Made by a program: the position numbers and the translations under genes
NCBI RefSeq assembly: GCF_011045215.1
Contig: NZ_CP049201.1
Source: Escherichia coli
GTDB taxonomy: Bacteria; Pseudomonadota; Gammaproteobacteria; Enterobacterales; Enterobacteriaceae
Reading direction: 5' to 3' (one strand)
DNA length: 64,000 nt
The notes under the pieces: model-generated
What the model was told of the DNA's origin: nothing
The model's input: the letters and a program-made list of their open reading frames with translations, nothing else
The model's database searches: none
In this document: positions 1 to 28,640 of the stretch, in pieces
Layout: each line of letters starts with the position of its first letter
Position numbering within the stretch: position 1 is the stretch's first letter

Positions 1-281
1 ATTGCGAGCGGGAAGAAATTCGGTAAGTCATCATCCCGTCATAGCCGCCAGAGATACTGGAAGACGGTAACTGGCCCGGCAGAGACTGGCCGACCTGCGC
101 CTGCGAGGTCATGCGCAGATATTTCTGATAGACCATCAAATCACTGGAACTGATTTTTACCGCTGGAGCACCACCAGCCAGGACTTCAAACGCCCCGGAA
201 GCCATGCTCTGTTGCACGATCATTTCCGGCAGCACCATTGACGGCGACACAATAGTAGTCGCAGGAGTAAATGCGCTCATT
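1..281 (-). CDS. phage structural protein, N-terminal part (possibly major capsid); truncated by window edge
   Basis: Minus-strand ORF starting at ATG (278-280 complement), translation begins MSAFTPATTIVSPSMVLPEMIVQQ and runs off the window; sits after the protease/scaffold and head protein genes in the late operon. Confidence 0.3.
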
Positions 282-294
282 AATTAATATCCCC

Positions 295-912
295 TTAAAT
301 TAAAAACAGGCCGCACGGTTTGCCGATTTCCCAGACAACGTTACCGCCATCCTCTTTTTTCACCGTCAGGTTTCCGTCAACTGAAACCATCAGCAGCTTA
401 ATATCCACTTTCGGATTAGCGCCGGGTGATCCCGAATAAACATCAACCATGTTTTTCGTCAGATCCCACACAAAACCACTGGCAGCAACGGTGTTATTGC
501 CATCAGCCAGCGCAACAACTTCTGCACTGACAGGGAGAGGAATGCGGGCACCTGAGCCAACGCGGTAATAGTGAACAAAGCCACCCGCAAGATATAACGG
601 CACCGGATTATCCGGCGTGGTAATGCCATGAAATGCCTGATTAAAGACCGTAAAGGCGTTACATGCGTTTTGTGTAGCCTGCTTAATTACCGCGCCGTTA
701 ACGCTGTCTTTCGCGGGAGCAATGCACTCCATAATGCCAACGCCACCCCATACCGGTTCAGTGATTTTGCTGTCCAGTCGACCGGAGCAAAGTTGCAGAC
801 GAATTGCCGGATCATCCTGCGCATCCCCCTGCATCAGCCCACGGGATTCGACGTTAAAAAGGCCAACAAATGCTCCACGGTTTTTAAACGGATGAAAATT
901 AATATCAGCCAT
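295..912 (-). CDS. phage head protein (decoration- or capsid-associated), 205 aa
   Basis: ORF in head module between the scaffold/protease gene and the next structural gene; function assigned by position only. Confidence 0.4.
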   Translation of the reverse strand: MADINFHPFKNRGAFVGLFNVESRGLMQGDAQDDPAIRLQLCSGRLDSKITEPVWGGVGIMECIAPAKDSVNGAVIKQATQNACNAFTVFNQAFHGITTPDNPVPLYLAGGFVHYYRVGSGARIPLPVSAEVVALADGNNTVAASGFVWDLTKNMVDVYSGSPGANPKVDIKLLMVSVDGNLTVKKEDGGNVVWEIGKPCGLFLI

Positions 913-2227
913 TGTTCAGGCTCCCTTGAGTGTTAATTTTTGCCAGACGACGCCCCGGAATTTTGAAAGCACTCAGCCAGACGTTCGGATCGCCCTGATA
1001 TTCAGTAATGCGACGCCCGGCTTCATCGTTGCGGATACGTTTATGCAGTTGCCCCTGCCTACTCATCATTTCTTTTTCGATGGACTGACGGGCGGCACTG
1101 AAAATTGCGTCCTCAAGCACAGCCAGCGTTGCAGAATCCGCAATCGCGCGAATATTGACGTCCTTATGTGCCGGAGAGTGTTTCTGCATAGCGATTAGCG
1201 CACGCTTGCGGTAGTCCAGCGCATTTTCACCAGAAAACGGTGCTGGCGCGTTTTTACCGCAGGCACTGAATGCGGAGTCGGCTTTTGCCTGCGCTTCTGC
1301 CAGGGCAGAGTCATTGCGTTCTTTTTCTGCCTCCTCGTCAGCCTTACGCTGTTCTTCCGCTTCGGAATCAGCCTTTGCTTTCTCCTCAGCGTCTTTGGCT
1401 GCCGCCTCGTCAGCTTTGGCTTTTTCTTCCGCCTCCTTTGCCGCAGCTTCATCAGCTTTACGCTGTTCCTCTGCTGCTTCATCGGCTTTGGCCTTTTCTT
1501 CGGCCTCTTTTTTCGCCAGCTCTTCAGCATCCGCCCGCGCTTTGTCCCGCTGTTCCAGTGAGTCCATGCGCGTGACGACTCCATCGATTTTCTGATTAAT
1601 GCCGCTCAGGGCATCATTCACCACCCCCTGTAACAGGGCCTGGAGTTCTTCTTTTTCCATCTCAATTTCACCTGTATTTGTCACTTCAACCCCTGCGGGG
1701 ATCCGGTCTTTATCCCACACGCCCAACGAGCCGTGGTCTTTCGTCACCAGGGCGATGTGATCAACAAGGAAAGGAACGCCTTCGATTAAAAAATTGGTGT
1801 CACCTTCCTGTACTTCCACATTTCCTGATGTGCTGTTGAACACCACCGACGGGCTTGTCGAAACATCCCCCTCAGTGATTTCTTCAACAATGCTCTGGAG
1901 GTAAACGCGGCACACCGCCCATACCTCATCACCCCGGATATACGGCAGCATGACGCTACCAACGATCCGCGATTTAAAATCCTCCTCCGTCAGAACTGCG
2001 TCGTCAGGATGGTTTGCGATAACCGGAAGGCCATTGCATCGCCTTAAAAACTCCTCGTTCAGATAGAGCTTTGGATCACGCCAGACGTGCTCTTTCAGCC
2101 CGGCGCGATAGGCAAGCCCGGTTCCGGTTATGCGCAAATTCACCAGCCACATGTTGGAGAATTTCACCGGAGACGGTACGGTTCCGTCCCTGATGCGTTC
2201 TGCCACTTCAAGCTCGGTTAAACTCAC
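905..2227 (-). CDS. prohead protease / scaffold-like protein with internal Ala/Glu/Lys-rich coiled-coil repeats, 440 aa
   Basis: Position directly after portal and head-morphogenesis genes; central low-complexity region of EEKAKADEAA-type repeats typical of scaffold domains. Confidence 0.4.
   Translation of the reverse strand: MSLTELEVAERIRDGTVPSPVKFSNMWLVNLRITGTGLAYRAGLKEHVWRDPKLYLNEEFLRRCNGLPVIANHPDDAVLTEEDFKSRIVGSVMLPYIRGDEVWAVCRVYLQSIVEEITEGDVSTSPSVVFNSTSGNVEVQEGDTNFLIEGVPFLVDHIALVTKDHGSLGVWDKDRIPAGVEVTNTGEIEMEKEELQALLQGVVNDALSGINQKIDGVVTRMDSLEQRDKARADAEELAKKEAEEKAKADEAAEEQRKADEAAAKEAEEKAKADEAAAKDAEEKAKADSEAEEQRKADEEAEKERNDSALAEAQAKADSAFSACGKNAPAPFSGENALDYRKRALIAMQKHSPAHKDVNIRAIADSATLAVLEDAIFSAARQSIEKEMMSRQGQLHKRIRNDEAGRRITEYQGDPNVWLSAFKIPGRRLAKINTQGSLNNG
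1314..1560. repeat. in-frame tandem degenerate repeat (about 27-30 nt units) encoding (A/E/K)-rich heptad-like repeats
   Basis: Direct reading: repeated gctttggc/ttcttccgcctc motifs; translated as AEEKAKADEAA repeats inside the 905-2227 ORF. Confidence 0.7.
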
Positions 2228-3041
2228 GTTTGCCCTTCTCCGTTAAAAATTCGTCGGGTAGTTTCTGAGGGGCGTAGATCGGCAGTGCATCGCAACTGCA
2301 ATAAACCTCCTCCCCGGCAGCAGTGATTTCGTCATAAAAACCATATACGGGCTTAATCAGCCCCTGCTCCAGCGCCCACGAATCGCGGAGGAGATAAATT
2401 TTCTCGTCGCGCTCTTTGTGGTCCTGTCGGTATTTGTAGCCCGGACGCCGCCAATTCGAATGCCAGCGCAGAGCAATCGCTCCACTCTGAACAGCCAGCA
2501 GATACTTAACGTTGCTTGCCAGCTTATGCCCCTGGTCAATTGCCACCCGACGACTGATAAAATCCATATCCTTCACGGATTTCTGAAACCCGGCCTTCAC
2601 TTCCCGGCGATCAATTTCGCTCACCCCGTCAGGCGGAATGGACGTAACCCAACCCTGAAAACGCTGTATGGTTTTCTCGATGGCCTGTTCTCGGTTGAGT
2701 TTTATCAGGTTGGCACTGGCGAAAATTCGCCTGTCGAGTTCCTTGCGAAACTCAGGTTTCAGTTTTTCAACAGTGATTTTTTTAGGGCCGTCAGGAGGCT
2801 GATCCCGTAATGCCCCGCCGTCGATGACAAGACGGCTGTAGATAGCGGTGAGGTGTTTTCTGGCTACGGTATCATCAGGGGTTTCTCGCTGAGCGGCTAC
2901 ACGGAGTTTCCGGCACCATTCGAGCAATGATTTTTCGCTATCCCACCCGTGATTTACGTAGTAGTTAACGGCATCCGTCAGAACCTCATACAGCGTCCTG
3001 ATCCGTTTCTTCTTCCTCACCGCCCGGCTGGAAATTGCCAT
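2208..3041 (-). CDS. phage head morphogenesis protein (Mu F / SPP1 gp7-like minor head protein); start uncertain
   Basis: ORF immediately downstream of portal in late operon; track ORF (2208-3179) overlaps portal so an internal start is assumed. Confidence 0.35.
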   Translation of the reverse strand: MAISSRAVRKKKRIRTLYEVLTDAVNYYVNHGWDSEKSLLEWCRKLRVAAQRETPDDTVARKHLTAIYSRLVIDGGALRDQPPDGPKKITVEKLKPEFRKELDRRIFASANLIKLNREQAIEKTIQRFQGWVTSIPPDGVSEIDRREVKAGFQKSVKDMDFISRRVAIDQGHKLASNVKYLLAVQSGAIALRWHSNWRRPGYKYRQDHKERDEKIYLLRDSWALEQGLIKPVYGFYDEITAAGEEVYCSCDALPIYAPQKLPDEFLTEKGKREFNRA

Positions 3042-4425
3042 CAGGCGTCTCCTGCTTCGGTGGTTCATAATTCGCCAGCGCGTCCACATCAATGATGAGT
3101 GGAGCTTCGCCATAGGTTTGCGTGGCATTAACAAGGCTTGCCAGCCATTCAGTGACGGCGGCACGGTTTTCAGGATCAACCTGTGGCGACACGGCAGAGA
3201 AAAGTGCTATCGCCTGTTGAATCACTTTACTGTCGCTTTCCCGGCGTTTGTCCGGCGACTCCTCCACCAGCTCCTGCCATGTCGCGGTAAATTCACGTCG
3301 CCACTGGTAAAACGTGGTTTTATAGTCATCAGTTATGATGTCCGGGTAATCATTTTTCAGCGACTGATAAAATTCCTCGTTCCAGGCGATGTACTGCACC
3401 AGGCGTTCGAAATAATCCATCACGGGTTCAATCTGCTGGCGTACACCATCGATATACTGGCTGATGGCTTTCGAATCTTCGGTCCCCTCACCGAAACCAT
3501 TCGAAAAGGCTTCCTCTTTGATGAGGATCGCCGGAACGTCACTCCCTGACGCAATATCGGAAATAATATTGTCGCGTGCAGCGTTTAGCGCACCATCGAT
3601 GTTTTGTAGATTTAGCGAGGTAACGTCCTCATCCTTCCCGATACTAAGCACACCTTTATTTTTTGCCTCTTTGACGTTTTCCCTTTTTCGTCCCGTGGCG
3701 GCAGCCATGATCCCGTCAAGTTTCGAACCGTACTGCACAACTTTAGCTACCAGTACGCCCGCCTTCTGGCTGACGAGATCATTCGCCTCCATCGTGTTGA
3801 TATAGGATTTCAGGGAATAAAGAACGCGCTGAAACACACTTCGTCCGGTGAATCCGAACGATGAACTCTGAAACTCCAGATAAATCGGTGTGCCGTTGAA
3901 GATTTTCAGTGTGCGTGACGGATGCCAGTCTTTCCCACCAATCTTCAGTTTTTTATTGGCTTCCTGGAAAAACGGGCTGTTGGGGTTCTGGTCAGTCACC
4001 ATCGAACCGGAAGCGTTCAACGGGTCCCACGCGTTGATATACACGTCATCTTCTGTCAGTCCGAACGTCGGAAGCGGTTCACGACATGGAACGCTGTCGG
4101 TGCCCACGCCGATCGCTGCAGCACCGTAGCAACGAGACAGAAAAAACAGATTTTTAATCTTCTCGTTGACCTTCATGCGTTCCCATACCTCCTGAAAACG
4201 CCTCACAACCCTCTCGTCAGGGTCTGTCTCCACGTTATACTGGCGCGGCTTACACATCGCCATCAGTATGGGTTTTTCGACAAGTTTTCCGCCCAGAGGA
4301 TGGAATTGCCACAGCTGCTTACACAATTCATAGCCAATGTCGGTTCCCGGCTGAATTTCTTCAGCCTCAAGAATACGCATCAGTGCCGAACCGAGGCCGC
4401 CAGTAATCTCGATCTCTGCCATCAA
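2986..4425 (-). CDS. phage portal protein, 479 aa
   Basis: Large ORF directly downstream of terminase large subunit with acidic C-terminus; canonical position of portal. Confidence 0.55.
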   Translation of the reverse strand: MMAEIEITGGLGSALMRILEAEEIQPGTDIGYELCKQLWQFHPLGGKLVEKPILMAMCKPRQYNVETDPDERVVRRFQEVWERMKVNEKIKNLFFLSRCYGAAAIGVGTDSVPCREPLPTFGLTEDDVYINAWDPLNASGSMVTDQNPNSPFFQEANKKLKIGGKDWHPSRTLKIFNGTPIYLEFQSSSFGFTGRSVFQRVLYSLKSYINTMEANDLVSQKAGVLVAKVVQYGSKLDGIMAAATGRKRENVKEAKNKGVLSIGKDEDVTSLNLQNIDGALNAARDNIISDIASGSDVPAILIKEEAFSNGFGEGTEDSKAISQYIDGVRQQIEPVMDYFERLVQYIAWNEEFYQSLKNDYPDIITDDYKTTFYQWRREFTATWQELVEESPDKRRESDSKVIQQAIALFSAVSPQVDPENRAAVTEWLASLVNATQTYGEAPLIIDVDALANYEPPKQETPDGNFQPGGEEEETDQDAV

Positions 4426-4439
4426 AAATATCCTGATTT

Positions 4440-5768
4440 TTACAACTCCGCGTAATTACCGTGCGCGATGATCAATCCATAGGTGTAACAATCGAAAAGG
4501 TCATCAGCACGTTTATGCGCGTCTTTGTCTGCCAGGTGGAACCCGGCGATTTGTTTGATGAGGTGGTTTGCGGTTGTGCGCTTGAATGAAACGGTTTTGT
4601 CGTAAGCCTCGCGGGTAATTTTGCATTTACCCTGGTAATGGTGGCTGGAAGCCAGCACCGCGCGCTCGTCTTTCCCTTTGCTGGTTAACGCTGATTTAAT
4701 CGGCGTCATATCCCAGCCTTCGGTTTCCGCTTTCTGGTTGAGGATTGCGCCCATTGCGGCATCCTCCATGAATACCCCCTGACTCCCCAGGCGCGGGCGG
4801 CAGAGTTGCGCCAGCCGCTCGAGGTTGTCATAAACACCGGGGATATACTCAGGAAGCAGCGACGCTTTAATTTGCGTCACATCCCAGTCGATAACGGTCA
4901 GTTTCGGCTCATCGGAATACGTGGACTCATACGCGAAGTAAACCACGCCTGTCCCGTCGTTCTCCGTCCCGCCTTTCAGCGCCGTATCCATTACCGCAAA
5001 AATCATGTCGCAGTGTCGCGGCATCTCAACCGGCTGGCCATCCACCAGCAGCTTATCGACATCGAGTAACGCGTCTTTGGACCAGTCTACGAACTCTGCA
5101 AGATATTCCTGCTGCCAGACGCGCGGATCGGATTTCTTCTCCGTTTCCTCCAGTTCTTCTTTCGGAATATACGGATTCGATGAAGTTGGCGCATGGTGCA
5201 TAACAAATCCCAGGGATTCATCGTGGCATATCGCGTAGAAAAAATTGCTCTCGTCGATACCGTTTGGTGTGGAAAATACCCACGCACAGCCGCGGTAATC
5301 GACAAGCGTCGGGCGTATCGCTCGGGGCCAGATTTCCTCGAGCATTTCCGGCGATTTAGTGAATGCGGCCTCATCAATCAGCACAGCGTGATATTTACGC
5401 CCACGCCCGGCCAGTTTGTTATTGTCCGTTACCCAAAAGTCGATGCGCCCCCCATTACGGAGAATGATGCGCTTTTCATTTTTTGACTGACTGAGGATCA
5501 GCGGTTGCAGAACGGCGCTAATTTCATCCCAGATTTCCTGGTACTGGCGGTATTGCGCGGTAAAAATCCCCACCCTACCCGCGATAAGTTGCCCGGTGGT
5601 AGGAACGGCAAATTTCCGCGTAGCGAAACTGGTAGCGATGTTCACCAGCATCACCGTTTTACCCCAGCGACGACCACAGCATACCGCGTGGAAGCGTTCC
5701 TCTATTGCCGCCGTCCATGCAGCTATTTGCCCCTCATGAGGTTTTGGGAGGTAGATTTCAATCGACAT
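4440..5768 (-). CDS. terminase large subunit, 442 aa
   Basis: Walker A-like motif CGRRWGKT near N-terminus, acidic nuclease-like C-terminal half; follows the small-subunit gene with a 4-codon overlap. Confidence 0.75.
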   Translation of the reverse strand: MSIEIYLPKPHEGQIAAWTAAIEERFHAVCCGRRWGKTVMLVNIATSFATRKFAVPTTGQLIAGRVGIFTAQYRQYQEIWDEISAVLQPLILSQSKNEKRIILRNGGRIDFWVTDNNKLAGRGRKYHAVLIDEAAFTKSPEMLEEIWPRAIRPTLVDYRGCAWVFSTPNGIDESNFFYAICHDESLGFVMHHAPTSSNPYIPKEELEETEKKSDPRVWQQEYLAEFVDWSKDALLDVDKLLVDGQPVEMPRHCDMIFAVMDTALKGGTENDGTGVVYFAYESTYSDEPKLTVIDWDVTQIKASLLPEYIPGVYDNLERLAQLCRPRLGSQGVFMEDAAMGAILNQKAETEGWDMTPIKSALTSKGKDERAVLASSHHYQGKCKITREAYDKTVSFKRTTANHLIKQIAGFHLADKDAHKRADDLFDCYTYGLIIAHGNYAEL

Positions 5769-6849
5769 TATCCACTCCCGGCATCGGCAGAGAGTTGTGG
5801 ATAATTATTTCGTTATTCTCACCACCCACGCCTTTTTTGAGGTTTTCAATCTCAGTGCGCAGCTTTTCGTTGCGAAGCCTCAGTCCTTCAAGCTCCAGAT
5901 CATTGCGACTGTCAGTTGCACCACCAGCAGAACTTCCTTTCGTCGCCATTATCAGCTTGATAAGTTCGCGCCGGGCGGCAGCCTTATCCTCCAGCAGGAT
6001 CTCAACACCAAATTTCCCGAGCTTTGCCCCTGCATATAATTGTCGCGCATCCCCATCAAGCAGAGTGGTATCAGCCATATAAAGCTGTCCCGTTCCCTCA
6101 CCGCAGCACTTCGGACAATCCGGATTGGGTATGGCGTTATCAACAAAGCCGAGGCCTCCATATTCCGGCTCGGGTTTGCCATCTCTGGAGGCCTGTGCCG
6201 CTGCCTTATCGAATTCTGCAATATCACGCCACTGGTAGAGGTGATTCTCGCCCCAGCAATAACGGCAGTTAACACGGCGAAATTGTGCCAACTGATTGGG
6301 GTCGGCCTGGACAATGGCCATCAACTGACTCACCAGTAAATCCAGGTCTGCGGTATAGCGTTTCTGATACTGATTGCGGAAGTAGCTGATAGCACGATAA
6401 ACCCTGGCATTTCTAAGCATACGGCTGGCGTTGCTGTTAGCTGTCGCACCTTGCCCCTCATAACCAGCCAGTCGGTATGCCTCTGTCGGCTTTTTCCCCT
6501 GAGCAACAAGCATCGCAAACTTAGCCTGCTGGTCAGAAATGCCGAATTCATCGGGGCAGAACGAAAATTCCTCCGCGTCGCCCTCATTCAGGCACGCATC
6601 GGATACTGGCTTTTTTTTCTGAGATTTTCCGTTCCGCTTTTGCGCAGTCTGCGCAGATTTTTTCTGCGCACTTTGTTGCGCAGTTTTGCGCATTTCTGTC
6701 TGCGCATTTTTCGGAGGTTTTTTGATGTAACGACGGGCTGTTGCGTAATTCAGTCCCCTTGCCTCACACCATGCCACCGGGGATACACCGGAGCGGGTGT
6801 ATTCAGCAATATATTCCTGCTGCAACGCCCCCCAGTCCGGTCTGCTCAT
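5758..6849 (-). CDS. terminase small subunit-like protein, 363 aa
   Basis: N-terminal HTH-like region, basic Lys/Gln-rich linker, position immediately upstream of terminase large subunit. Confidence 0.5.
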   Translation of the reverse strand: MSRPDWGALQQEYIAEYTRSGVSPVAWCEARGLNYATARRYIKKPPKNAQTEMRKTAQQSAQKKSAQTAQKRNGKSQKKKPVSDACLNEGDAEEFSFCPDEFGISDQQAKFAMLVAQGKKPTEAYRLAGYEGQGATANSNASRMLRNARVYRAISYFRNQYQKRYTADLDLLVSQLMAIVQADPNQLAQFRRVNCRYCWGENHLYQWRDIAEFDKAAAQASRDGKPEPEYGGLGFVDNAIPNPDCPKCCGEGTGQLYMADTTLLDGDARQLYAGAKLGKFGVEILLEDKAAARRELIKLIMATKGSSAGGATDSRNDLELEGLRLRNEKLRTEIENLKKGVGGENNEIIIHNSLPMPGVDNVD

Positions 6850-6852
6850 TAG

Positions 6853-7062
6853 TTAGTCCTGATTTTTATCCACCCTGAGTAGTTCACGCAGGGCAAAGGC
6901 ATCCCCTTTTCTGGCAAGCTTAAACAATGCCGCCCGTAGTTCGGCTTCACCTTTCGCTCTGCCCTTACGGATGGATGCGTAAAAATCTGTCATTGCTTCC
7001 CGATTTTCTTTCAGTCGGTTCAGATCAACATCCAGAACGTCAGCGATTTGTTGTGCAGTCAT
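6853..7062 (-). CDS. small HTH-like phage protein (about 69 aa from internal Met)
   Basis: Short ORF between GT-A-like gene and terS; alpha-helical basic sequence; start chosen to avoid overlap with upstream gene. Confidence 0.3.
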   Translation of the reverse strand: MTAQQIADVLDVDLNRLKENREAMTDFYASIRKGRAKGEAELRAALFKLARKGDAFALRELLRVDKNQD

Positions 7063-7990
7063 CCGGCACGCTGCCAGAGACTCGACTTTCGAATACGGAA
7101 TCATTTGTCACCCCCATTGATATGCAGGGTGTCTTCTTCCTGTATTTTTCGTGAAGGATTTTTACTGCAGCGTTGTTCCAGGTGACCTGATGGTGAATGC
7201 GTTTATGGCTGGCCCCCATCAGTGAGATTTTTACGCACGAGGGCGCATACATGACGGAGTAAAAACTTTTAACGTAGGTTCCGGAATCCAGATACAGCTC
7301 GGTCATTCCGCCGCTGTTTTTCTGCGTCTGTTTCTGCCCTAACTGGACAGCACCGATCGTCATAAACAATTCACCACAGCGACCGAGATTCGTGTACGTA
7401 TTCACATCCTCGTTAATGCGCCCCATGAATGAGAACGGTCGATCAACCGAACAGATAAAGCTGTTCATTGCCTTGCGTTTCACCCACGAAGCATGGCCGC
7501 CATTGTCACCAAGAAAATCCCCGCCCTGCGACATAGCGATGGAAAGCGCAGGTATTGATTCGTAGTACGCCAGCATTTCAGAAAGGATCGCATCCAGTTT
7601 TCTTATCGGGAAATAGGCCTGGTCATAGTTGCGATCCACCCGAAACTGAAACTCGTGATAATCATCATCGAGCTGAATGAAGTATTTACACCCGACCAGT
7701 TTTGCCAGGTCGAAACAGGCATTACGGGCGTAAAAAATTGAGCGGCGATCACCGAAATTATCGGCTTCGTCAAAACGACTGGCTATATCGGCTTTGGAAA
7801 ACACCAGCACCTGTTCACCAAATTCAGCTATGTACTGATGCCGTGTCTTATCTTCATCATCAACAACGATAAAAATTTTCCCGGTATAGCCAGCACGACG
7901 CAACGTCCGGTAAGTCAGAACTTTGTCCGGTCGCCCGTGAGTCAGAATAAAGGCGCAAAAATCATCACGCATATTCCTCCTCCCCGCCAT
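7040..7990 (-). CDS. hypothetical protein with GT-A-like (nucleotide-diphospho-sugar transferase-like) motifs, about 310 aa
   Basis: N-terminal FILTHGRPD...IFIVVDDED and a later LDDDY (DXD-like) motif resemble GT2-type glycosyltransferases; translationally coupled to the upstream ParB-like gene. Confidence 0.35.
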   Translation of the reverse strand: MAGRRNMRDDFCAFILTHGRPDKVLTYRTLRRAGYTGKIFIVVDDEDKTRHQYIAEFGEQVLVFSKADIASRFDEADNFGDRRSIFYARNACFDLAKLVGCKYFIQLDDDYHEFQFRVDRNYDQAYFPIRKLDAILSEMLAYYESIPALSIAMSQGGDFLGDNGGHASWVKRKAMNSFICSVDRPFSFMGRINEDVNTYTNLGRCGELFMTIGAVQLGQKQTQKNSGGMTELYLDSGTYVKSFYSVMYAPSCVKISLMGASHKRIHHQVTWNNAAVKILHEKYRKKTPCISMGVTNDSVFESRVSGSVPDDCTTNR

Positions 7991-8753
7991 GCATGATCTC
8001 CACCATACGCTGCGTCATCCGGACAAAACCATTTTCGATGGCTTGCTGATAATCAATGATCACCAGTGCCGACTCCTCAAAAAGGCCCTGAATTTCAGCG
8101 GGGGCGTGAGCGTAATAGTCTGCAATTCTGCTGAAATTAAACACCGTGTGGCGTTCTGCCGCGCACAGGAGGAATTTTTCGATATCAGGCTCAAGGGACG
8201 CCGTACGTATCCGGCTGACCAGCTCCTGAGTTTTCGTATCGTCGTACAGTTCACTGATATCCGGTTCATCCCCTGACGGCTCATAAACAGGCGTATCAAT
8301 TTTCGTCGTGTACGGCTCATCCTCATTCGCTGTACCTGGCAAAACATCCGTTAATAGTTCGTCAATTTCTGTCGGGCAGAATCCTGTCAGGGAGATATCA
8401 AAATCAGCATTGATTAGGTCCGACAGCTCCATCCGTAACAGATCTTCATCCCAGCCAGCACTCATCGGCAGGCGATTATCAGCCAGGCGGTACGCCTTTT
8501 TCTGATCATCCGTCAGACCAGACAGAACAATGACCGGAACCGAATCCATTTTGAGCGCCTCAGCCGCCATAACACGCCCGTGCCCCGCAATAATTTCACC
8601 CTTTTCATCAATCAGCACCGGATTTGTCCAGCCGAATTGCTTAATGCTTTCAACCAGCTGTGTCACCTGTTCAGGAGAGTGTGTCCTTGCATTGTGCACA
8701 TACGGAGACAACTCTTGTAACAGTCGATAGACAATATTCAATTTTTCGCTCAT
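7965..8753 (-). CDS. ParB-like nuclease domain protein, 262 aa
   Basis: ParB/Srx-type N-terminal domain (…VHNARTHS…IIAGHGR motif); start at the ATG preceded by a GAGG Shine-Dalgarno. Confidence 0.6.
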   Translation of the reverse strand: MSEKLNIVYRLLQELSPYVHNARTHSPEQVTQLVESIKQFGWTNPVLIDEKGEIIAGHGRVMAAEALKMDSVPVIVLSGLTDDQKKAYRLADNRLPMSAGWDEDLLRMELSDLINADFDISLTGFCPTEIDELLTDVLPGTANEDEPYTTKIDTPVYEPSGDEPDISELYDDTKTQELVSRIRTASLEPDIEKFLLCAAERHTVFNFSRIADYYAHAPAEIQGLFEESALVIIDYQQAIENGFVRMTQRMVEIMHGGEEEYA

Positions 8754-9508: not shown

Positions 9509-9575
9509 ACGTACCTCCGTTCTTTCGTTTTTTGAGTAATAAAAAAGGCCGCCACAGCGACCTTTGCCAGTACGT

Positions 9576-10121: not shown

Positions 10122-10122
10122 A

Positions 10123-19153: not shown

Positions 19154-19232
19154 AACTGCCTCATCTGGTGCCGAACCTTCCTCCGGATATAATCTGTGAT
19201 TCCCCAATCAACAGAACCAAAGGAGGTTCGAC

Positions 19233-19787: not shown

Positions 19788-19793
19788 ATCACC

Positions 19794-20216: not shown

Positions 20217-20502
20217 GAATCAACTCCTGTGCATTTTGTGTGTTAGTCTTACATCCAACAGGTAAACCATCGGTCGGATTCGGGTAGATATCAGGCCGAA
20301 GTTCATGAGGTGTAACCTCGAAATTCGTAGCCTCAGCGATACGCAATACCTTTTCGGGGCTTAACTGACTACGGCCAGTAGCTACGAGGCTAATCATTGA
20401 TTGCGAACAACCAGCGAGCGCGGCCAAACAAGACTGTCGTACACGATTTTTTTTCAAATATTCATCTAATGTCATAAGGGTCACCTTAGTAATGCCTGTC
20501 AA
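20200..20502 (-). CDS. ydaS: Cro-like HTH regulator (YdaS-like), about 100 aa
   Basis: HTH motif SCLAALAGCSQSMISLVATGRSQLS; divergent from the repressor gene across a 77-bp AT-rich region. Confidence 0.55.
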   Translation of the reverse strand: MTGITKVTLMTLDEYLKKNRVRQSCLAALAGCSQSMISLVATGRSQLSPEKVLRIAEATNFEVTPHELRPDIYPNPTDGLPVGCKTNTQNAQELIHENQA

Positions 20503-20579
20503 AATATTAACTATATTAATTTATATGATCAATACCCATATCAGTTTGAGATTATGAGTTGTGTTCATAAAATGGTGGT
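20503..20579. promoter_or_regulatory. divergent promoter/operator region between the repressor and cro-like genes
   Basis: 77-bp AT-rich intergenic with repeated ttaactatattaa-like half-sites between divergent HTH regulators. Confidence 0.4.
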
Positions 20580-21044
20580 ATGAGAAGAAAACGCGAAGAA
20601 ATCGCATCGCCAGAAGCTACGCAGCGTCTGCGCGCAGTCTGGGATGCAAAAAAAAGAGAGCTCAAACTGACTCAGGAGCTTGCTGCTGAGCTGATGGGCT
20701 TTGAGACTCAATCCACAGTTAGCCACTATCTCAACGGAAAGGCTCCACTAAACACTGATGCAGCATTAAAATTCGCTGTATTACTAAGAGTTAAGCCTGA
20801 AGAGTTGAGGCCTGATTTAGCTGATCTGATGAATTACGTCCGTTCTTCAGGAACTTATGACGAAAGTTTCGAAGGCGAAGGTTGGCGGATGGTTAACAAG
20901 CAACAAGCTGATTTACTGGATCTTTTTGAAATCCTACCCGAATCAGAAAAAGCAAAACTAATCGAAAGGCTTAAAGGTCAGAATGAACTCTACAAAGAAG
21001 CGTTTGAAAAGATGCTGGCAGCTCAGAAACGCATGAAGAAATAG
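20580..21044 (+). CDS. racR: prophage repressor with cI-like N-terminal HTH and no LexA-type peptidase domain (RacR-like), 154 aa
   Basis: HTH segment LKLTQELAAELMGFETQSTVSHYLNG resembles lambda cI N-domain; C-terminus is a short helical domain; followed by a terminator. Confidence 0.6.
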   Translation: MRRKREEIASPEATQRLRAVWDAKKRELKLTQELAAELMGFETQSTVSHYLNGKAPLNTDAALKFAVLLRVKPEELRPDLADLMNYVRSSGTYDESFEGEGWRMVNKQQADLLDLFEILPESEKAKLIERLKGQNELYKEAFEKMLAAQKRMKK

Positions 21045-21063
21045 CTCCCGCAACCTCGTAACT

Positions 21064-21090
21064 AAACCGCCATTTTTGGCGGTTTTTTTG
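21064..21090 (+). terminator. rho-independent terminator after the repressor gene
   Basis: aaaccgcc-atttt-tggcggttt hairpin followed by a run of 7 T. Confidence 0.6.
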
Positions 21091-21162
21091 TCCCCTCTGC
21101 CCCCTCACCTTACTTTTTTATCAAAAAAAACACTAAAAATTTCATTACGATAGTGCATTTTT

Positions 21163-21189
21163 ATCAACAAAATGCATATTTATGTTGAT
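21163..21189. promoter_or_regulatory. operator-like palindrome in the putative early-left promoter region
   Basis: ATCAACA-n13-TGTTGAT inverted repeat in AT-rich DNA upstream of the first early-left gene. Confidence 0.3.
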
Positions 21190-21279
21190 CACTCATATGA
21201 ATATAACTAATATTATTGCAGAAGTAGCACGGCGCTGTAGGTTTTAGTTCCGCCACCCGGCGTTAAGGGGAGAGATAAG

Positions 21280-21585
21280 ATGACATTTACTCAGGGTATT
21301 GACCCGCTAGAAACGAATAATGCTGTATTTTGTCTGGCGTATGAATTGTCTGTACAGGCATCAACAATGGCAAAGGAAAGAGAGCTAACTCCAGGGCAGG
21401 CACGTCTCGCACTGGAACTCGCCAGCCGGGTATCAGTAGCAAAAAAAATCGCACCAGCCGTAATGGCACGAAACCTGGCTGATGCAATTACAGATCTCAG
21501 GTCACTACAACCATACAATTATCATGTCGAAGAGGTATTAGAAAAATTAATCGCTGCTGCCGACGCCATCATTGATGAACTGTAA
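21280..21585 (+). CDS. hypothetical protein, 101 aa, first gene of the early-left operon
   Basis: AAGGGGAGAG Shine-Dalgarno; occupies the position of N in lambda but is not Arg-rich. Confidence 0.4.
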   Translation: MTFTQGIDPLETNNAVFCLAYELSVQASTMAKERELTPGQARLALELASRVSVAKKIAPAVMARNLADAITDLRSLQPYNYHVEEVLEKLIAAADAIIDEL

Positions 21586-22195
21586 TAATTGATATGCGGG
21601 AATTTCTATTCCTGAGAGATGCATTTTTCACGCCCGGACAACGCCCGGCAATTGCCAGATTCAGTTTTTCACGCTGCTCTGGCGTAAGAAGTTTAACAAG
21701 TTCTTCAAGAACAAGCGCGGTAGCCTCTAATCTGGCGGAAAGATAATCAATATTTTTGTGTTGAGATTGAATAGGCATAAGCAATTCCTTACTGGTTGTG
21801 TGAGAGCGCCAGTATACCACCGAGCCTGAAGTGGTAAAAAAAGACAAGCACACAACACGAAAGCGTACGGAGGAGGTGTTTTTCCCTTAGAAGGCTTGTC
21901 GTTAAATTTCTTCGACCGTGCGCTTCCGGTTGTGAATAACAACATTGCTGTGTGTAGTCTTGGCGGCATCAGTTTTTTCTTGAAGTTCGGCTGATGTCCG
22001 CCCTTTTTAAAGTGAATTTTGTGATGCGGTGAATGCGGCTCAGCGCACGCGGAACAGTTAAAAGGCCAGTTGACCTCCGTATTGGTTCTTATGGGTGGGT
22101 TCTCTGTATCCGGCGTTAATTGTTAACTGGTTAACGTCACCTGGAGGCACCAGGCACCGCATCGACAAAATTCATTTGTGAAAATGGAGATAATT

Positions 22196-22417
22196 ATGAT
22201 TGCTCATCACTTCGGAACTGATGAAATACCACGTCAGTGTGTGACTCCTGGCGATTATGTTCTTCATGAAGGTCGGACATATATCGCCTCAGCAAACAAT
22301 ATTAAAAAGCGAAAACTTTATATTCGTAGCCTGACTACAAAAACATGCATTTCTGACTGCATGATTAAAGTCTTCCTCGGTCGTGATGGTTTACCTGTAA
22401 AGGCGGAGTCATGGTGA
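22196..22417 (+). CDS. kilR: KilR-like cell-division inhibitor, 73 aa
   Basis: [35 protein letters not shown]...; length and position match Rac KilR. Confidence 0.7.
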
Positions 22418-22587
22418 TGACTAAGAAAATAAAATGTGCTTACCACCTTTGCAATAAAGGAATTGAAGAAAGCAAAAGCATTAAAAGACCACTTCATTTC
22501 ATGCGTGGAGTTATCCCAACGACGGAAATGAAAAAATATTGTAGTGAAAATTGTGCCGAAAAAGACCAGATGGCACACGAACTCTAA
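22417..22587 (+). CDS. ydaE: YdaE-like small Cys-rich protein, 56 aa; not in the ORF track
   Basis: ATG overlaps the kilR stop (TGATG); translation [56 protein letters not shown]. Confidence 0.7.
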   Translation: MTKKIKCAYHLCNKGIEESKSIKRPLHFMRGVIPTTEMKKYCSENCAEKDQMAHEL

Positions 22588-22661
22588 TTAACTGACTATT
22601 CGAAACTGAATTTATGCCAGCAATGGCAGGGATTCTTTCAACCTTAAAAAAGGAAACAGCA

Positions 22662-22961
22662 ATGCACAAGCATATTAAATGTGAAATTGAACTTGATGTT
22701 ATTAACGATTCTCTCGCCGAATTTAAATGCGGGAATACATTACATGGTTTTATTCAGATTTCCCAAAAAGAAAACATTACGGTAATTATTGATGGTGGTT
22801 ACGTTCTGGGAACATTTGATTGTGATGCATGTGCCCTTAAAGAAGTCGCATTACTCGCAGCTCGTATTGAAGAGGCTGACAAGAAATACGGTATCAGTTA
22901 TCAACGACTGAAAGAACTCTCTTATATCGCATCATCAGTTCATTTCTTTTATGCAATCTGA
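22662..22961 (+). CDS. racC: RacC-like protein, about 99 aa
   Basis: Position between ydaE and the recE-like gene as in Rac; start taken at MHKHIKCEIE. Confidence 0.5.
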   Translation: MHKHIKCEIELDVINDSLAEFKCGNTLHGFIQISQKENITVIIDGGYVLGTFDCDACALKEVALLAARIEEADKKYGISYQRLKELSYIASSVHFFYAI

Positions 22962-22985
22962 ATCTGAGTTGAGGTTAAAAAAATA

Positions 22986-24887
22986 ATGAGCATAAAACAA
23001 CACTTCCTGTTACGGAAAGCGAAAAAATCATCCGGTGAACCTGACGCAGTTCTGTGGGCAAGCGACGATCTCGAATCGACCAGTGCCACTCTGGACTACC
23101 TGATTGTTAAGTCAGGTAAAAAACTGAGCAACTATTTTAAAGCTGTTGCTACGAATTTTCCTGTCGTTAACGACCTGCCCCCAGAAGGGGAGATCGATTT
23201 TACGTGGTGTGAACGCTATCAACTCGGCAAGGACTCCATCACCTGGGAACTAAAACCAGGTGCAGCACCAGACGACGTTCACCATCAGGAGAATATCCCG
23301 GAAACTGAAGAACTGGCTGGAGACCAGGAAGAAAACGCGCAGGCGGACGCTCACGGGGATTGCCAGGATTGCGAAGTTCCTGTAGCCACACTCAGTCTTA
23401 CTCATCGTTTCCTTCATCTCTTCTTTTTCGGTCAGATGGAAGGTGGAAAATACAGTAGTCACGCCACGCCGGAACAGCGCAATACCGTCATCCGGATGGA
23501 GCTGGATACGGAGGACAGCTACCTCCAGAGTCTGCTTACAGCAGTACGCTCTCATCCTGAACTGGATAAGCTGACAAACCACCATCTTGGCAGACTGGCG
23601 GAGTCTGTATCCAGAGTGTTTACCCACACAGAAACCCGTTGCATCAGCCCCGCTGAATTCGACAAATTCATTTCCACCTGGATGAAAACTGATTATCTGG
23701 ATCAGGGATTACTGACAAAAGAATGGGCGAAGGGAAACTGCGTATCTGAAATCAATCGCACCCCGTCGGGCGCTAATGCCGGTGGCGGTATCCTTACCGA
23801 CCGTGGAGAAGGTTTTGTCCATGATGATGCATCAGTAGCGCGTGACGTAGCCGCTGGCGTACTGGCACGTTCAATGGATATCGATATTTACAATCCACAT
23901 CCAGCACACGCTAAACGTATTGGGGAAATTGTCGCTGAAAATAAACCGCCATTTTCTGTTTTTTTCAGCAAATTCATCACCATGCCTGGCCACAAGGATT
24001 TCTCCCGCGCCATCGTGGTTGCGTCCGTGAAAGAAGCGCCAGTCGGTATAGAGGCTACCCCACACCATGTCACTGAATATCTGAACAGGGTGCTGACTGA
24101 AACCGATCATGCCAACCCTGATCCGGAAATCGTGGATATTGCCTGCGGTCGCTCCTCTGCCCCGATGCCACAGCGTGTAACAGAAGAAGAAAAACCGCAA
24201 CCATCTTGCGCAATGGCAGATGAACAGGCAACGGCTGAAACAGTGGAACCGGATACAAGTGAACATCATCAGGACACGCAGCCGCTGGATGCCAAGTCAC
24301 AGGCCGATGCGAAATATCAGAAACTGCGGGAAGAACTCCATGAAGCCCGGAAAAACATTCCGCCCAAAAATCCTGTCGATACAGACAAAATGCTGGCAGT
24401 CCATCGCGGTGAGTTCGTTGAAGGAATTAGCGACCCGAATGATCCGAAATGGGTGAAGGGAATTGAAACCCGCGATTCTGTGAACCAGAACCTGCCAGAA
24501 ACGGAAAAAACCAGTCAGGATGTGAAACAACCTGAGCCAGTAGTGCAACGGGAACCGGAAATAGTCTGCACCGCCTGCGGTCAGAGCGGTGGCGGCAACT
24601 GCCCTGATTGTGGCGCGGTGATGGGCGACGCAACATATCAGGAAACATTCGATGAAGAGAATCAGGCTGAAACTCAGGAAAATGATCCGGAGGAAATGGA
24701 AGGCACTGAACCATCATTAGAAAAACTCGACTGGAAAAGACAAGTGGTGATTGCGGCTGTTTATGGTTTGTGTGCGAATCCTGCAGGTATAGCCTCAGCG
24801 CCATTAATTCCGGGTATTGCAATGATGATTGCCAACAAGCTTGAAAATTTTGGGGTGACGGATGATGAGCACATACCCGATTTTTGA
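22986..24887 (+). CDS. recE: RecE N-terminal region homolog lacking the C-terminal exonuclease domain, 633 aa
   Basis: N-terminus [26 protein letters not shown] and internal blocks ([50 protein letters not shown]) match my recollection of Rac RecE residues 1 to about 600; ORF ends where the gam-like gene begins. Confidence 0.55.
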
Positions 24888-25161
24888 TCGCATTGAAGAG
24901 CTGGCATGGTCACGCCACTACCAGCAGATCGTTCGCGAAGAAAAAGAAACGGAGCTGGCAGACGACCTGGAAAAAGGTCTACCCCAGCACCTGTTTGAAT
25001 CGCTCTGCATCGACCATTTGCAACGCCACGGTGCCAGCAAACAGGCAATCAGTCGCGCATTTGATGACGATGTTGAATTTCAGGAACGCGTGGCGGAACA
25101 CATCCGGTACATGGTTGAAACCATTGCTCGTCACCAGGTTGATATTGATTTGAAGGTATAA
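24862..25161 (+). CDS. gam: Gam-like RecBCD inhibitor (short form), 99 aa
   Basis: [45 protein letters not shown]...HQVDID closely matches lambda Gam. Confidence 0.8.
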
Positions 25162-25166
25162 AACAA

Positions 25167-25952
25167 ATGAGTACAGCACTTGCAACACTGGCCGGGAAGC
25201 TGGCTGAACGTGTCGGCATGGATTCTGTCGACCCACAGGAACTGATCACCACTCTTCGCCAGACAGCATTTAAAGGCGATGCCAGCGATGCGCAGTTCAT
25301 CGCATTGCTGATCGTCGCCAACCAATACGGCCTTAATCCGTGGACGAAAGAAATTTACGCCTTCCCTGATAAGCAGAACGGCATCGTTCCGGTGGTGGGC
25401 GTTGATGGCTGGTCCCGCATCATCAATGAAAACCAGCAGTTTGATGGCATGGACTTTGAGCAGGACAATGAATCCTGTACATGCCGGATTTACCGCAAGG
25501 ACCGTAATCATCCGATCTGCGTTACCGAATGGATGGATGAATGCCGCCGCGAACCATTCAAAACCCGCGAAGGCAGAGAAATCACCGGACCGTGGCAGTC
25601 GCATCCCAAACGAATGTTGCGGCATAAAGCCATGATTCAGTGTGCCCGTCTGGCCTTCGGATTTGCTGGTATCTATGACAAGGATGAAGCCGAGCGCATT
25701 GTCGAAAATACCGCATACACTGCAGAACGTCAGCCAGAACGCGACATCACTCCGGTTAACGATGAAACCATGCAGGAGATTAACACTCTGCTGATCGCCC
25801 TGGATAAAACATGGGATGACGACTTATTGCCGCTCTGTTCCCAGATATTTCGCCGCGACATTCGCGCATCGTCAGAACTGACACAGGCCGAAGCAGTGAA
25901 AGCTCTTGGATTCCTGAAACAGAAAGCCACTGAGCAGAAGGTGGCAGCATGA
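25167..25952 (+). CDS. bet: Bet (Red-beta) single-strand annealing protein, 261 aa
   Basis: Near-identical to lambda Bet over its length ([37 protein letters not shown]...). Confidence 0.9.
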
Positions 25953-26629
25953 CACCGGACATTATCCTGCAGCGTACAGGGATCGACGTGAGAGCTGTCG
26001 AACAGGGGGATGATGCATGGCACAAATTACGGCTCGGCGTCATCACCGCTTCAGAAGTTCACAACGTGATAGCAAAGCCCCGCTCAGGAAAGAAGTGGCC
26101 TGACATGAAAATGTCCTACTTCCACACCCTGCTGGCTGAGGTTTGCACCGGTGTGGCTCCGGAAGTTAATGCTAAGGCGCTGGCCTGGGGAAAACAGTAC
26201 GAGAACGACGCCAGAACCCTGTTTGAATTCACTTCCGGCGTGAATGTTACTGAATCCCCGATCATCTATCGCGACGAAAGTATGCGCACCGCCTGCTCTC
26301 CCGATGGTTTATGCAGTGACGGCAACGGCCTTGAACTGAAATGCCCGTTTACCTCCCGGGATTTCATGAAATTCCGGCTCGGTGGTTTCGAGGCAATAAA
26401 ATCGGCTTACATGGCCCAGGTGCAGTACAGCATGTGGGTGACGCGAAAAGATGCCTGGTACTTTGCCAACTATGACCCGCGTATGAAGCGTGAAGGCCTG
26501 CATTATGTCGTGGTTGAGCGGGATGAAAAGTACATGGCGAGTTTTGACGAGATGGTGCCGGAGTTCATCGAAAAAATGGACGAGGCACTGGCTGAAATTG
26601 GTTTTGTATTTGGGGAGCAATGGAAATGA
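25949..26629 (+). CDS. exo: lambda-type Exo (Red-alpha) 5'-3' exonuclease, 226 aa
   Basis: Near-identical to lambda Exo ([40 protein letters not shown]...). Confidence 0.9.
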
Positions 26630-26856
26630 GCGCAGCCACAAAGCTCACAGGAGAAAAACCAGTGCGATACACAAAAATTAAACCATGTCCATTTTGTGGT
26701 TGTCCATCAGTAACGGTGAAAGCCATTTCAGGATATTACCGAGCGAAGTGTAACGGATGCGAATCCCGAACCGGTTATGGTGGAAGTGAAAAGGAAGCAC
26801 TCGAAAGATGGAATAAACGAACCACTGGAAATAATAATGGAGGTGTTCATGTATAA
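26620..26856 (+). CDS. ralR: RalR-like restriction-alleviation protein / type I toxin
   Basis: [48 protein letters not shown] matches Rac RalR. Confidence 0.7.
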
Positions 26857-27037
26857 AATTACCGCCACTATTGAAAAGGAAGGTGGCACTCCTACTAACT
26901 GGACAAGATATTCAAAATCTAAACTAACGAAATCAGAATGCGAAAAAATGCTCTCAGGTAAAAAAGAAGCGGGCGTTTCCAGAGAGCAGAAAGTAAAACT
27001 GATAAATTTTAATTGCGAGAAACTTCAGTCCTGGTGA
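26837..27037 (+). CDS. ydaC: YdaC-like small protein; start uncertain
   Basis: [23 protein letters not shown]...; position between ralR and xis as in Rac. Confidence 0.5.
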   Translation: MEVFMYKITATIEKEGGTPTNWTRYSKSKLTKSECEKMLSGKKEAGVSREQKVKLINFNCEKLQSW

Positions 27038-27136
27038 ATTGCATTGTATTCAAATTAAAACTTCATAGCTGATTATTAATAATCAACATCGGGCGTCAAT
27101 TTCAGTCTAACATTGGCGCCTGCCAGAGGTGATGCG

Positions 27137-27352
27137 ATGGCACAAGTAATCTTTAATGAAGAGTGGATGGTTGAATACGGCCTGATGCTTCGCACTGGTC
27201 TGGGGGCCAGACAAATTGAAGCATACCGCCAGAACTGTTGGGTGGAAGGCTTCCACTTCAAACGAGTATCTCCTTTAGGGAAGCCAGACAGTAAGCGAGG
27301 GATTATCTGGTACAACTATCCAAAGATAAATCAGTTTATCAAAGACTCATGA
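27137..27352 (+). CDS. ydaQ: excisionase-like protein (YdaQ/XisR-like), 71 aa
   Basis: [32 protein letters not shown]...; immediately upstream of integrase. Confidence 0.65.
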
Positions 27353-27353
27353 T

Positions 27354-28589
27354 ATGTCTAAATTACCAACAGGTGTCGAGATTCGAGGTAAATACATTCG
27401 CATCTGGTTCATGTTTCGAGGAAAACGATGCCGGGAAACATTGAAAGGCTGGGAGGTTACTAACAGTAACATTAAAAAAGCCGGGAATTTAAGAGCGTTG
27501 ATAGTTCATGAAATCAATTCCGGTGAATTTGAGTATTTAAGACGTTTCCCCCAGTCCGGCACTGGGGCAAAAATGGTGACAACTAGGGTCATAAAAACGT
27601 TCGGGGAGCTTTGTGATATCTGGACAAAAATTAAAGAGACAGAGTTAACAACAAACACAATGAAGAAAACGAAATCACAATTAAAAACACTCAAGATAAT
27701 AATTTGTGAGAGTACCCCGATATCGCATATTCGTTATAGCGATATCTTAAACTACCGGAATGAACTGCTGCATGGAGAAACGCTTTACCTGGATAATCCA
27801 AGATCCAACAAAAAAGGAAGAACCGTGCGCACAGTTGATAACTATATCGCCCTACTCTGTTCGCTGTTACGTTTTGCGTATCAGTCGGGATTTATATCAA
27901 CCAAACCATTTGAAGGAGTAAAAAAATTACAGCGAAACAGAATAAAGCCTGACCCGTTATCTAAAACAGAATTCAATGCATTAATGGAAAGTGAAAAAGG
28001 ACAGAGCCAGAACTTATGGAAATTTGCCGTTTACTCAGGACTTCGTCACGGGGAACTGGCAGCTCTGGCGTGGGAGGATGTGGATCTCGAGAAGGGAATT
28101 GTGAATGTCAGAAGAAACCTGACGATACTTGATATGTTCGGTCCCCCAAAAACAAATGCCGGGATCCGGACAGTAACACTACTGCAGCCTGCTCTTGAAG
28201 CACTGAAGGAGCAATACAAACTGACCGGACATCATCGCAAAAGCGAAATCACCTTTTATCATAGGGAGTACGGCAGAACCGAAAAGCAAAAACTGCATTT
28301 TGTTTTCATGCCCAGGATGTGTAACGGAAAACAGAAACCTTATTACTCGGTAAGCAGTTTGGGTGCGAGATGGAATGCAGCAGTAAAACGTGCTGGTATT
28401 CGCCGCCGTAATCCGTACCATACGCGGCATACTTTTGCCTGCTGGCTGTTGACGGCAGGAGCGAACCCGGCGTTTATAGCCAGCCAGATGGGGCATGAAA
28501 CTGCGCAGATGGTGTATGAAATTTACGGTATGTGGATTGATGACATGAACGACGAACAGGTAGCCATGTTGAATGCGCGGTTATCGTAA
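27354..28589 (+). CDS. intR: tyrosine-type site-specific integrase (IntR-like), 411 aa
   Basis: C-terminal catalytic region with R...HTRHT...Y residues; last phage gene before ttcA. Confidence 0.85.
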   Translation: MSKLPTGVEIRGKYIRIWFMFRGKRCRETLKGWEVTNSNIKKAGNLRALIVHEINSGEFEYLRRFPQSGTGAKMVTTRVIKTFGELCDIWTKIKETELTTNTMKKTKSQLKTLKIIICESTPISHIRYSDILNYRNELLHGETLYLDNPRSNKKGRTVRTVDNYIALLCSLLRFAYQSGFISTKPFEGVKKLQRNRIKPDPLSKTEFNALMESEKGQSQNLWKFAVYSGLRHGELAALAWEDVDLEKGIVNVRRNLTILDMFGPPKTNAGIRTVTLLQPALEALKEQYKLTGHHRKSEITFYHREYGRTEKQKLHFVFMPRMCNGKQKPYYSVSSLGARWNAAVKRAGIRRRNPYHTRHTFACWLLTAGANPAFIASQMGHETAQMVYEIYGMWIDDMNDEQVAMLNARLS

Positions 28590-28640
28590 TTGCAAAGTTT
28601 GCCCCCAATTTGCCCCATTTAGTACCAGAGAACTGAAATA

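Follow-up and report, generated by a model that had tools for sequence, protein, structure and literature searches.

A Rac-family prophage at ttcA of Escherichia coli with intact visible genes and a mosaic structure

We analyzed a 64,000-nucleotide stretch of Escherichia coli DNA (NCBI RefSeq assembly GCF_011045215.1, contig NZ_CP049201.1), hereafter the window. Positions 1-28690 of the window almost certainly belong to a lambdoid prophage of the Rac family that has integrated into the 5' end of ttcA, and make up the 28.7 kb on its integrase-proximal (right-hand) side. Because all of its visible genes are intact, we consider the prophage a probably functional temperate phage, and we put the probability that this copy is complete and excisable at about 0.6. 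Sequence comparison further points to a very recent recombinant with its halves joined in the lysis cassette. In the structure that we propose, the early half (about 10.9-28.7 kb) has the gene layout of phage KingRac, whose activity has been shown experimentally, and includes many Rac orthologues. The packaging and head module, in the late half (1 to about 10.2 kb), is of the type found in phage Rac-SA53, accompanied in relatives by a contractile tail, and a portable lysis cassette joins the two halves.

Integration at ttcA and integrity of the visible genes

The prophage fills the window from base 1 into ttcA; the visible sequence begins at base 1, and the tail module and attL lie to the left of it. 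The full element probably measures about 50 kb. Orthologues of the K-12 integrase IntR and excisionase XisR adjoin ttcA, and the attachment (att) core AAGAAAGAGATATACAATCTGAACAA lies within the 5' end of this gene, as expected from the original prediction of a prophage at the Rac site. That prediction had ended the element at 28640; the att core places the end about 50 bp farther. The core differs at one position from the annotated attP of phage Rac-SA53 and at four positions from the 26-bp repeat that bounds K-12 Rac, and the pattern of ttcA-type cores is AAGAAAGA(N)CTGAACAA. No insertion sequence was seen in the prophage part of the window.

The late genes had been described as free of obvious frameshifts, and careful alignment agrees with this description. 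Each visible late gene has a full-length, single-frame match to an annotated coding sequence of strain OkiPb01716, with amino acid identities of 94-100%. The sole indel in positions 1-10000 relative to relatives that are 99.9% identical is at position 4436, in the 20-nt spacer between the portal and TerL genes. The genes for regulation, replication, Q, lysis, packaging and head formation are thus all present and intact, the major capsid gene as far as the window shows it.

The early genes characteristic of Rac (ralR/RalA, rcbA, kilR, ydaE, recE and ydaT-U-V-W) are present in the same order, with amino acid identities of 73-97%. The recombination genes form a lambda Red module, in which Gam covers 98 of 98 profile positions. 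The RecE-RecT pair was not found in the window: recT is absent, and Gam, Bet and Exo are encoded instead. The K-12 RacR/YdaS immunity is likewise absent. The prophage repressor gave no tblastn or blastp match to K-12 RacR and is 70% identical to the repressor common to KingRac and Rac-SA53, K-12 YdaS and the Cro-like protein share 42% identity over 50 residues, and YdaT is at 96%. Judged from these sequences, the immunity module is heteroimmune to K-12 RacR. Of the Rac early, immunity and integration backbone that had been predicted, the integration and early orthologues (Int, Xis, RalR/RalA, KilR and YdaT/U/V) therefore stand, while the immunity genes, recT and the RecE nuclease do not.

Mosaic structure and the left junction

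Positions 10942-28844 of the window are identical to a ttcA-site prophage in GCA_043872845.1 (0 of 17,903 positions differ), in a genome that shows 23 differences in the next 6,043 chromosomal positions (0.38%). If a replaced bet/exo patch is set aside, 14.3 kb of the prophage in GCA_969165035.1 show 2 differences, compared with about 1.2% in its flank. The identity with these copies extends to some 150 bp beyond the att core and no farther. Near-identical copies in diverged hosts are most simply read as the result of recent lysogenisation by a phage that is infectious now or was so very recently; the alternative is import by homologous recombination.

The late half has different kin. Draft relatives match window 1-12215 at 99.6% and its first 10 kb at 99.87% (13 differences), and GCA_048143845.1 has one mismatch in 2470 bp of the late region. 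In ttcA-site prophages with the window-type early region that are contiguous in drafts, the late region is only about 96% identical and encodes an M15 endolysin. Between the two halves, the lysis cassette (8795-10880) recurs with exactly the same span and 98.9% identity in unrelated lambda-like prophages with Nu1/GpA terminases (loci L043 and L044), and its edges coincide exactly with the contig ends in the draft assemblies of both closest relatives. The sharing of the cassette and these contig breaks could also be expected if the assembly had misjoined the halves via a repeat of about 2.1 kb present in other prophages of the same genome. We consider such an artefact highly improbable: complete genomes and several independent assemblies show Q, tRNAs, holins, endolysin, ParB, TAGT and terminase in this order without a break, and long reads have no difficulty in crossing a 2-kb repeat.

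The tail can be read from relatives. In the draft relatives (complete in L012, from GCA_048143845.1, and L022), the module comprises the capsid gene, five small head-tail genes, a 445-residue sheath protein (phrog_205, 2e-53), a 657-residue SLT-domain (tape-measure-like) protein, baseplate genes including one for a Baseplate_J family protein, a cargo gene (HSDR_N or AntA) and two sets of fibre and chaperone genes. A complete contractile tail is thus encoded in the family of the window element. OkiPb01716 has a prophage of the window's kind, 98% identical in its late region, at the canonical location from uspF to ttcA; it includes a tail module, and its attL core lies beside uspF (locus L026, 8795-8820).

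The points that weigh against a complete and excisable copy concern the left junction and functions that were not recognised or are damaged in a relative. Since the tail and attL of the window copy lie left of base 1, its completeness is no more than probable. In the relatives with a 99.9% identical late region, the tail end adjoins pphA-yebW-yebV-rsmF and not uspF; all 24 of the 24 contigs read with the same 474-residue (B-type) fibre protein adjoin pphA, and no ttcA-type core was found at the pphA junction in the scanned loci L022 and L023. In GCA_012996225.1 (AATORZ010000001.1), the opposite contig end carries a different, 358-residue lambda-type integrase and an excisionase beside yebY. 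With pphA at the tail end and another integrase beside yebY, these relatives are sister prophages at pphA-yebY, an intergenic region that holds sdsR/ryeA and has been cited as an insertion hot spot (PMC3333887). They resemble the window element in the late region (99.87% over 1-10000) and in carrying kilR, ydaE, recE, ralR, DUF1187, YdaS/T and Q, but differ in integrase, excisionase and site, and their early region is 85-94% identical. A further sister prophage of this kind is found at NZ_CP074756.1 2550663-2593203. Because the late-region kin sit at yebY-pphA, the left junction of the window copy is uncertain.

Two origins of the recombinant could thus be considered, a hybrid phage with a canonical attL or in situ recombination between co-resident inverted prophages. 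In the latter case, a crossover in or near the shared lysis cassette between the ttcA prophage and an inverted yebY-pphA sister would have inverted the terminus, and the window would hold a days-to-decades-old hybrid at one end of a terminus-spanning inversion of about 0.5 Mb. The tail end would then adjoin pphA with the att site of the other phage, and IntR and XisR could not excise the element. The division of the window between yebY-pphA prophages (about 99.9% over 1-10206) and a ttcA-site prophage (100% over 10942-28844) fits this scenario, as do the lower late-region identity of contiguous ttcA-site prophages and the pphA junctions described above; moreover, the two prophage types coexist in strain F2_407_2_2, inverted relative to each other and separated by about 0.6 Mb. 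However, two-crossover recombination between phages yields the same visible structure with a canonical attL, and OkiPb01716 carries this module type canonically at uspF-ttcA. The holin stretch at 10207-10887 matches neither parent prophage type, which argues for repeated cassette exchange instead of one clean crossover, and the left junction itself lies beyond the content of the window. We therefore regard the inversion as unlikely.

It is also rather doubtful that the prophage is cryptic, with tail, fibres or attL deleted or degraded outside the window, which would make it defective or helper-dependent. Such decay affects many Rac-site elements and has precedent in K-12 Rac and in most O157 lambdoid prophages, which are defective (PMC2669165). 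In the OkiPb01716 copy, one fibre set is degraded: a fibre gene is reduced to a 102-nt remnant, and an assembly gene is frameshifted. A lipobox scan of 8700-10950 for a spanin (Rz/Rz1 or unimolecular) gave one spurious match and no candidate, whereas K-12 Rac (rzpR/rzoR) and KingRac have spanin genes; no antirepressor domain was found in the window, and no N-like antiterminator was identified among its genes. Since the lysis cassette is widespread, the spanin gap more likely reflects an unrecognised function than a defect. Against decay stand the zero or near-zero single-nucleotide differences between copies in diverged hosts together with the intact visible genes, which point to very recent activity, and the complete tail modules of the closest late-region relatives. 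A complete, excisable phage remains the reading that we prefer.

Gene content of the visible prophage

The features of the prophage are listed in Table 1. Among the head genes, a full-length relative of the major capsid protein also matches phrog_264 (major head protein). The 205-residue head protein has no record in an index of 153 billion genes, and a protein identical to the 440-residue DUF2213 protein is encoded on at least 23 public contigs. The Prokaryotic Genome Annotation Pipeline (PGAP) name of the portal in relatives, "anti-CBASS protein Acb1 family protein", was rejected as misleading in view of the Phage_portal_3 domain and the PHROG portal match (6e-75).

Just upstream of terS, a ParB_N/Srx protein gene is paired with a gene for a TAGT (TET-associated / GREB1-like) glycosyltransferase (7040-8753). 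K-12 YnaK is 91% identical to the ParB_N protein over 86 residues, and ynaK is an N-terminal remnant of such a gene. No TET/JBP or hydroxymethylase gene was in view near the pair. The two proteins could serve in DNA or protein glycosylation, or as a packaging accessory.

The endolysin of the lysis cassette is indexed in 432 blocks of a genome collection. The two hairpins at 10805-10974 are candidate targets of Q antitermination and would fit Q-dependent late transcription; the Rac-SA53 homologue of the DUF1133 protein is annotated as Q.

Table 1. Features of the prophage and of its insertion site, and DNA identities to K-12 Rac
Feature	Position	Strand	Basis or comment
Major capsid gene, first 93 codons (342 residues in relatives), cut by window start	2-280	-	98.9% to residues 1-93 of the OkiPb01716 342-residue protein; phrog_6671, 1e-39
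Head-module protein, 205 residues, role unknown	295-912	-	96.6% full-length match; phrog_6268, 1e-100
DUF2213 protein, head maturation protease/scaffold-like, 440 residues	905-2227	-	Pfam DUF2213; phrog_6216 and head maturation protease phrogs
Head morphogenesis (minor head) protein, 277 residues	2208-3041	-	phrog_324, 4e-37; 98.6% full-length match
Portal protein, 478 residues	2986-4422	-	Pfam Phage_portal_3; phrog_146 portal, 6e-75
TerL, 442 residues	4440-5768	-	Pfam Terminase_6N; phrog_2; 99.8% full-length match
TerS, 363 residues	5758-6849	-	Pfam Terminase_2; 100% match
TAGT-family (GREB1-like) glycosyltransferase, 310 residues	7040-7972	-	Pfam TAGT, 1e-34; phrog_842
ParB_N/Srx-domain protein, 262 residues	7965-8753	-	Pfam ParB_N; phrog_620
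Lysis cassette (93-residue reading frame, endolysin, two holins)	8795-10880		Exchangeable module
93-residue open reading frame	9227-9508		phrog_33497, no known function; in lysis cassette
Endolysin, GH108 and PG_binding_3, 181 residues	9576-10121	-	Pfam, 3e-25 and 3e-26
Holin, Phage_holin_3_7	10123-10401	-	Pfam, 8e-21
Holin, Phage_holin_8, 129 residues	10391-10780	-	Pfam, 4e-22
Two intrinsic-terminator-like hairpins	10805-10974	-	Just upstream of holin gene, between tRNAs and holin; consensus scan
tRNA-Thr(UGU) and tRNA-Gly(UCC)	11277-11428	-	Q-to-holin leader; ARAGORN, Rfam tRNA
Q-like late antiterminator (DUF1133), 180 residues	12145-12687	-	Pfam DUF1133, 6e-106; Phage_antitermQ at threshold
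nin-region genes DUF1364/YbcO and DUF1367 (NinB-like)	12684-13573	-	100% matches; phrog_319
hok/gef-family type I toxin	14060-14197	-	100% to annotated Hok/Gef protein; PF01848 in relatives
Replication block: DUF1627 protein, YdaV (DnaC/IstB-type helicase loader), YdaU (DUF1376)	16825-19207	-	Pfam; 94-96% to K-12 YdaW, YdaV, YdaU
YdaT (cII-position) and YdaS-family Cro-like helix-turn-helix protein	19794-20475	-	Pfam YdaT_toxin, YdaS_toxin/HTH_3
Prophage repressor, 154 residues	20580-21044	+	Pfam HTH_3/HTH_31 only
kilR and ydaE	22196-22587	+	94.5% and 73% to K-12
recE', 633-residue open reading frame	22986-24887	+	Aligns to K-12 RecE 1-608; Pfam Exonuc_VIII only
gam (99 residues), bet (261 residues), exo (226 residues), lambda Red-type	24862-26629	+	Pfam Gam, 5e-56; RecT family, 3e-33; YqaJ, 4e-30
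ralR toxin	26662-27037 region	+	94% to K-12
RalA antitoxin small RNA	26855-27033	-	Rfam RalA, 217 bits
rcbA/ydaC	26662-27037 region	+	97% to K-12
xisR excisionase	27137-27352	+	100% to K-12 XisR
intR tyrosine integrase	27354-28589	+	98.5% to K-12 IntR
ttcA	28641-29576	+	
attR core AAGAAAGAGATATACAATCTGAACAA	28665-28690	+	Inside ttcA codons 9-17
int-xis-rcbA-ralR and chromosomal flank			DNA identity to K-12 Rac 98.7%
ydaU-V-W			DNA identity to K-12 Rac 94.6%
ydaT			DNA identity to K-12 Rac 95%
kilR/ydaE			DNA identity to K-12 Rac 88%
recE N-terminal part			DNA identity to K-12 Rac 82-90%
ynaK			DNA identity to K-12 Rac 86%

The nin region, on the minus strand, contains an isolated cargo gene on the plus strand (14585-14964 region), which encodes a 95-residue coiled-coil protein with a C-terminal membrane anchor and a weak CCDC90-like/DUF1640 match, and has its own promoter-like site and terminator. 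Just upstream of this gene, at 14585-14608, lies the perfect 10+4+10 palindrome ATGTCTGTTGTCGTCAACAGACAT, the core of which is the window's only CTGT-N8-ACAG (14588-14603), a number within chance expectation (0.59 per window). The small reading frames at 19485-19787, 21280-21585, 21569-21853 and 21727-21969 have no Pfam or PHROG match.

A plus-strand reading frame is listed in the racC position, between kilR/ydaE and recE'. The recE' frame is open and lies directly upstream of gam-bet-exo; the same layout is present in 18 complete E. coli genomes and is found both at ttcA (KingRac) and at the yebY site. PGAP sometimes flags recE' as a pseudogene. The C-terminal nuclease domain of RecE (PF12684 in the full-length RecE of relatives) is absent from it. 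The catalytically sufficient RecE fragment begins near residue 588-606, and with this start the swap would have taken place at the domain boundary. The conservation of a nuclease-less RecE N-terminal region suggests that this region has a function of its own.

Relatives, induction and spread

K-12 Rac (NC_000913.3 1411899-1434958) is a cryptic prophage, and its DNA aligns only to patches of the window. The two elements share the integration site, the att core family and YdaT/U/V (about 96%). K-12 Rac lacks the Q, holin, endolysin, terminase and head genes of the window element, which in turn lacks recT, sieB, ydaF/G and trkG. This contrast is not new, and full-size, active Rac-like prophages at ttcA are already known: Sp10/CP-933R, KingRac and the LT-II phage Rac-SA53.

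The rac-like prophages Sp10 (O157 Sakai) and CP-933R both occupy ttcA (PMC4632033). Every functional category of Sp10 was scored intact save its repressor, which has no peptidase domain; Sp10 is not induced by mitomycin C, and it excises spontaneously, is packaged and transferred to K-12, and integrates there at the Rac attR (PMC2669165). It resembles the window element as a full-size Rac-like prophage at ttcA with a peptidase-less repressor and a DnaC-type helicase loader, but is set apart, by description only, by a lambda-like morphogenesis region and intact ExoVIII-type recombination.

KingRac (E. coli IGC_RcoliRes_1.1, NZ_CP054662) is a 46.8-kb Rac-like prophage that replaced K-12 Rac in the mouse gut; it forms particles, lysogenises in vivo and is weakly induced by mitomycin C (PMC6731689). 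Like the window element, it sits at ttcA and carries recE'-gam-bet-exo-ralR-DUF1187-xisR-intR, YdaS/T/U, a DnaC-type loader, DUF1367/1364/1133 and tRNA-Thr/Gly after Q. Unlike it, KingRac has a lambda-like head, non-contractile tail genes and an Rz-containing lysis cassette, and the DNA identity between the two is patchy (82-97%).

The LT-II toxins have been traced to "full-sized Rac-like prophages" (PMC5917428). One of these, the LT-IIa-converting phage Rac-SA53 (KU052037), compared through its GenBank annotation, is the best phage-database match to the head region of the window (95% over 1-6697). It shares the terminase, portal and head module and the two-holin arrangement, and its tail module is of the sheath and baseplate type. 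Rac-SA53 has eltIIaAB between its lysis and terminase genes, where the window has the 93-residue reading frame, and eplBA between Q and the holins, where the window has two tRNAs and KingRac four; neither LT-II nor pertussis-like Epl toxin cargo was found at these two slots of the window. Rac-SA53 further differs in a full recE with recT, an IS1 and the lack of a ParB-TAGT pair (annotated with a 'gpO-terS fusion' note). Thus, at least three virion modules occur on one integration and early backbone, and the window carries the Rac-SA53 type.

Among 5,426 complete E. coli genomes, the best coverage of window 1-25000 is 83% at 97%. The chromosomal flank at 39001-64000 (abgT ... tyrR, ycjT/X, mppA) is at most 99.6% identical to any of these genomes; the best match is a baboon isolate, and O157:H7 strains follow at 98.8%. 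Finished genomes thus sample the host lineage poorly. PapM-32-1, the complete chromosome closest in the flank (99.6%), also has a Rac-type prophage at ttcA, but of another kind. This prophage (NZ_CP049204.1 2481000-2530900) has recET, sieB, trkG, an ynaK remnant and ydaY together with a full P22-like capsid and lambda-like tail set, and looks like an undeleted K-12 Rac, against which the losses of K-12 Rac can be gauged.

We then propose a model for the life cycle of the window element, based on homology. The 154-residue helix-turn-helix repressor would keep the divergent early promoters shut. Upon derepression, the rightward operon would express kilR, recE', gam-bet-exo, ralR, xis and int, and the leftward operon the Cro-like and cII-like proteins, the YdaU/YdaV replication proteins and Q. 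Q would then read through the terminators that precede the holin, endolysin, terminase and head genes, and IntR and XisR would excise the element at the ttcA core.

The route to induction probably differs from that of SOS-inducible phages carrying a cleavable repressor. At 154 residues, the repressor is too short for a C-terminal S24 autopeptidase domain and matches HTH_3/HTH_31 only. No LexA box accompanied by an antirepressor was found in the window, where the sole candidate is the chance-level site in the palindrome, and the surroundings of the AntA or HSDR_N cargo genes in the tail region of relatives L014 and L022 lack one too. Going by Sp10 and KingRac, a repressor of this kind would lead to spontaneous or stationary-phase release and at most weak induction by mitomycin C; a negative mitomycin C test would therefore not show that the prophage is defective. 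In K-12 Rac, RpoS induces excision through raised xisR expression (PMC4632033).

Together, these comparisons make K-12 Rac a poor guide to the occupants of ttcA in wild strains. A late module common to a second chromosomal site provides scope for prophage-mediated inversions. If the window element did arise by such an inversion, it would be an otherwise intact phage whose att sites no longer match, freshly 'grounded' and seen just as it is being domesticated. The identical copies in diverged hosts point to a lineage that is spreading now.

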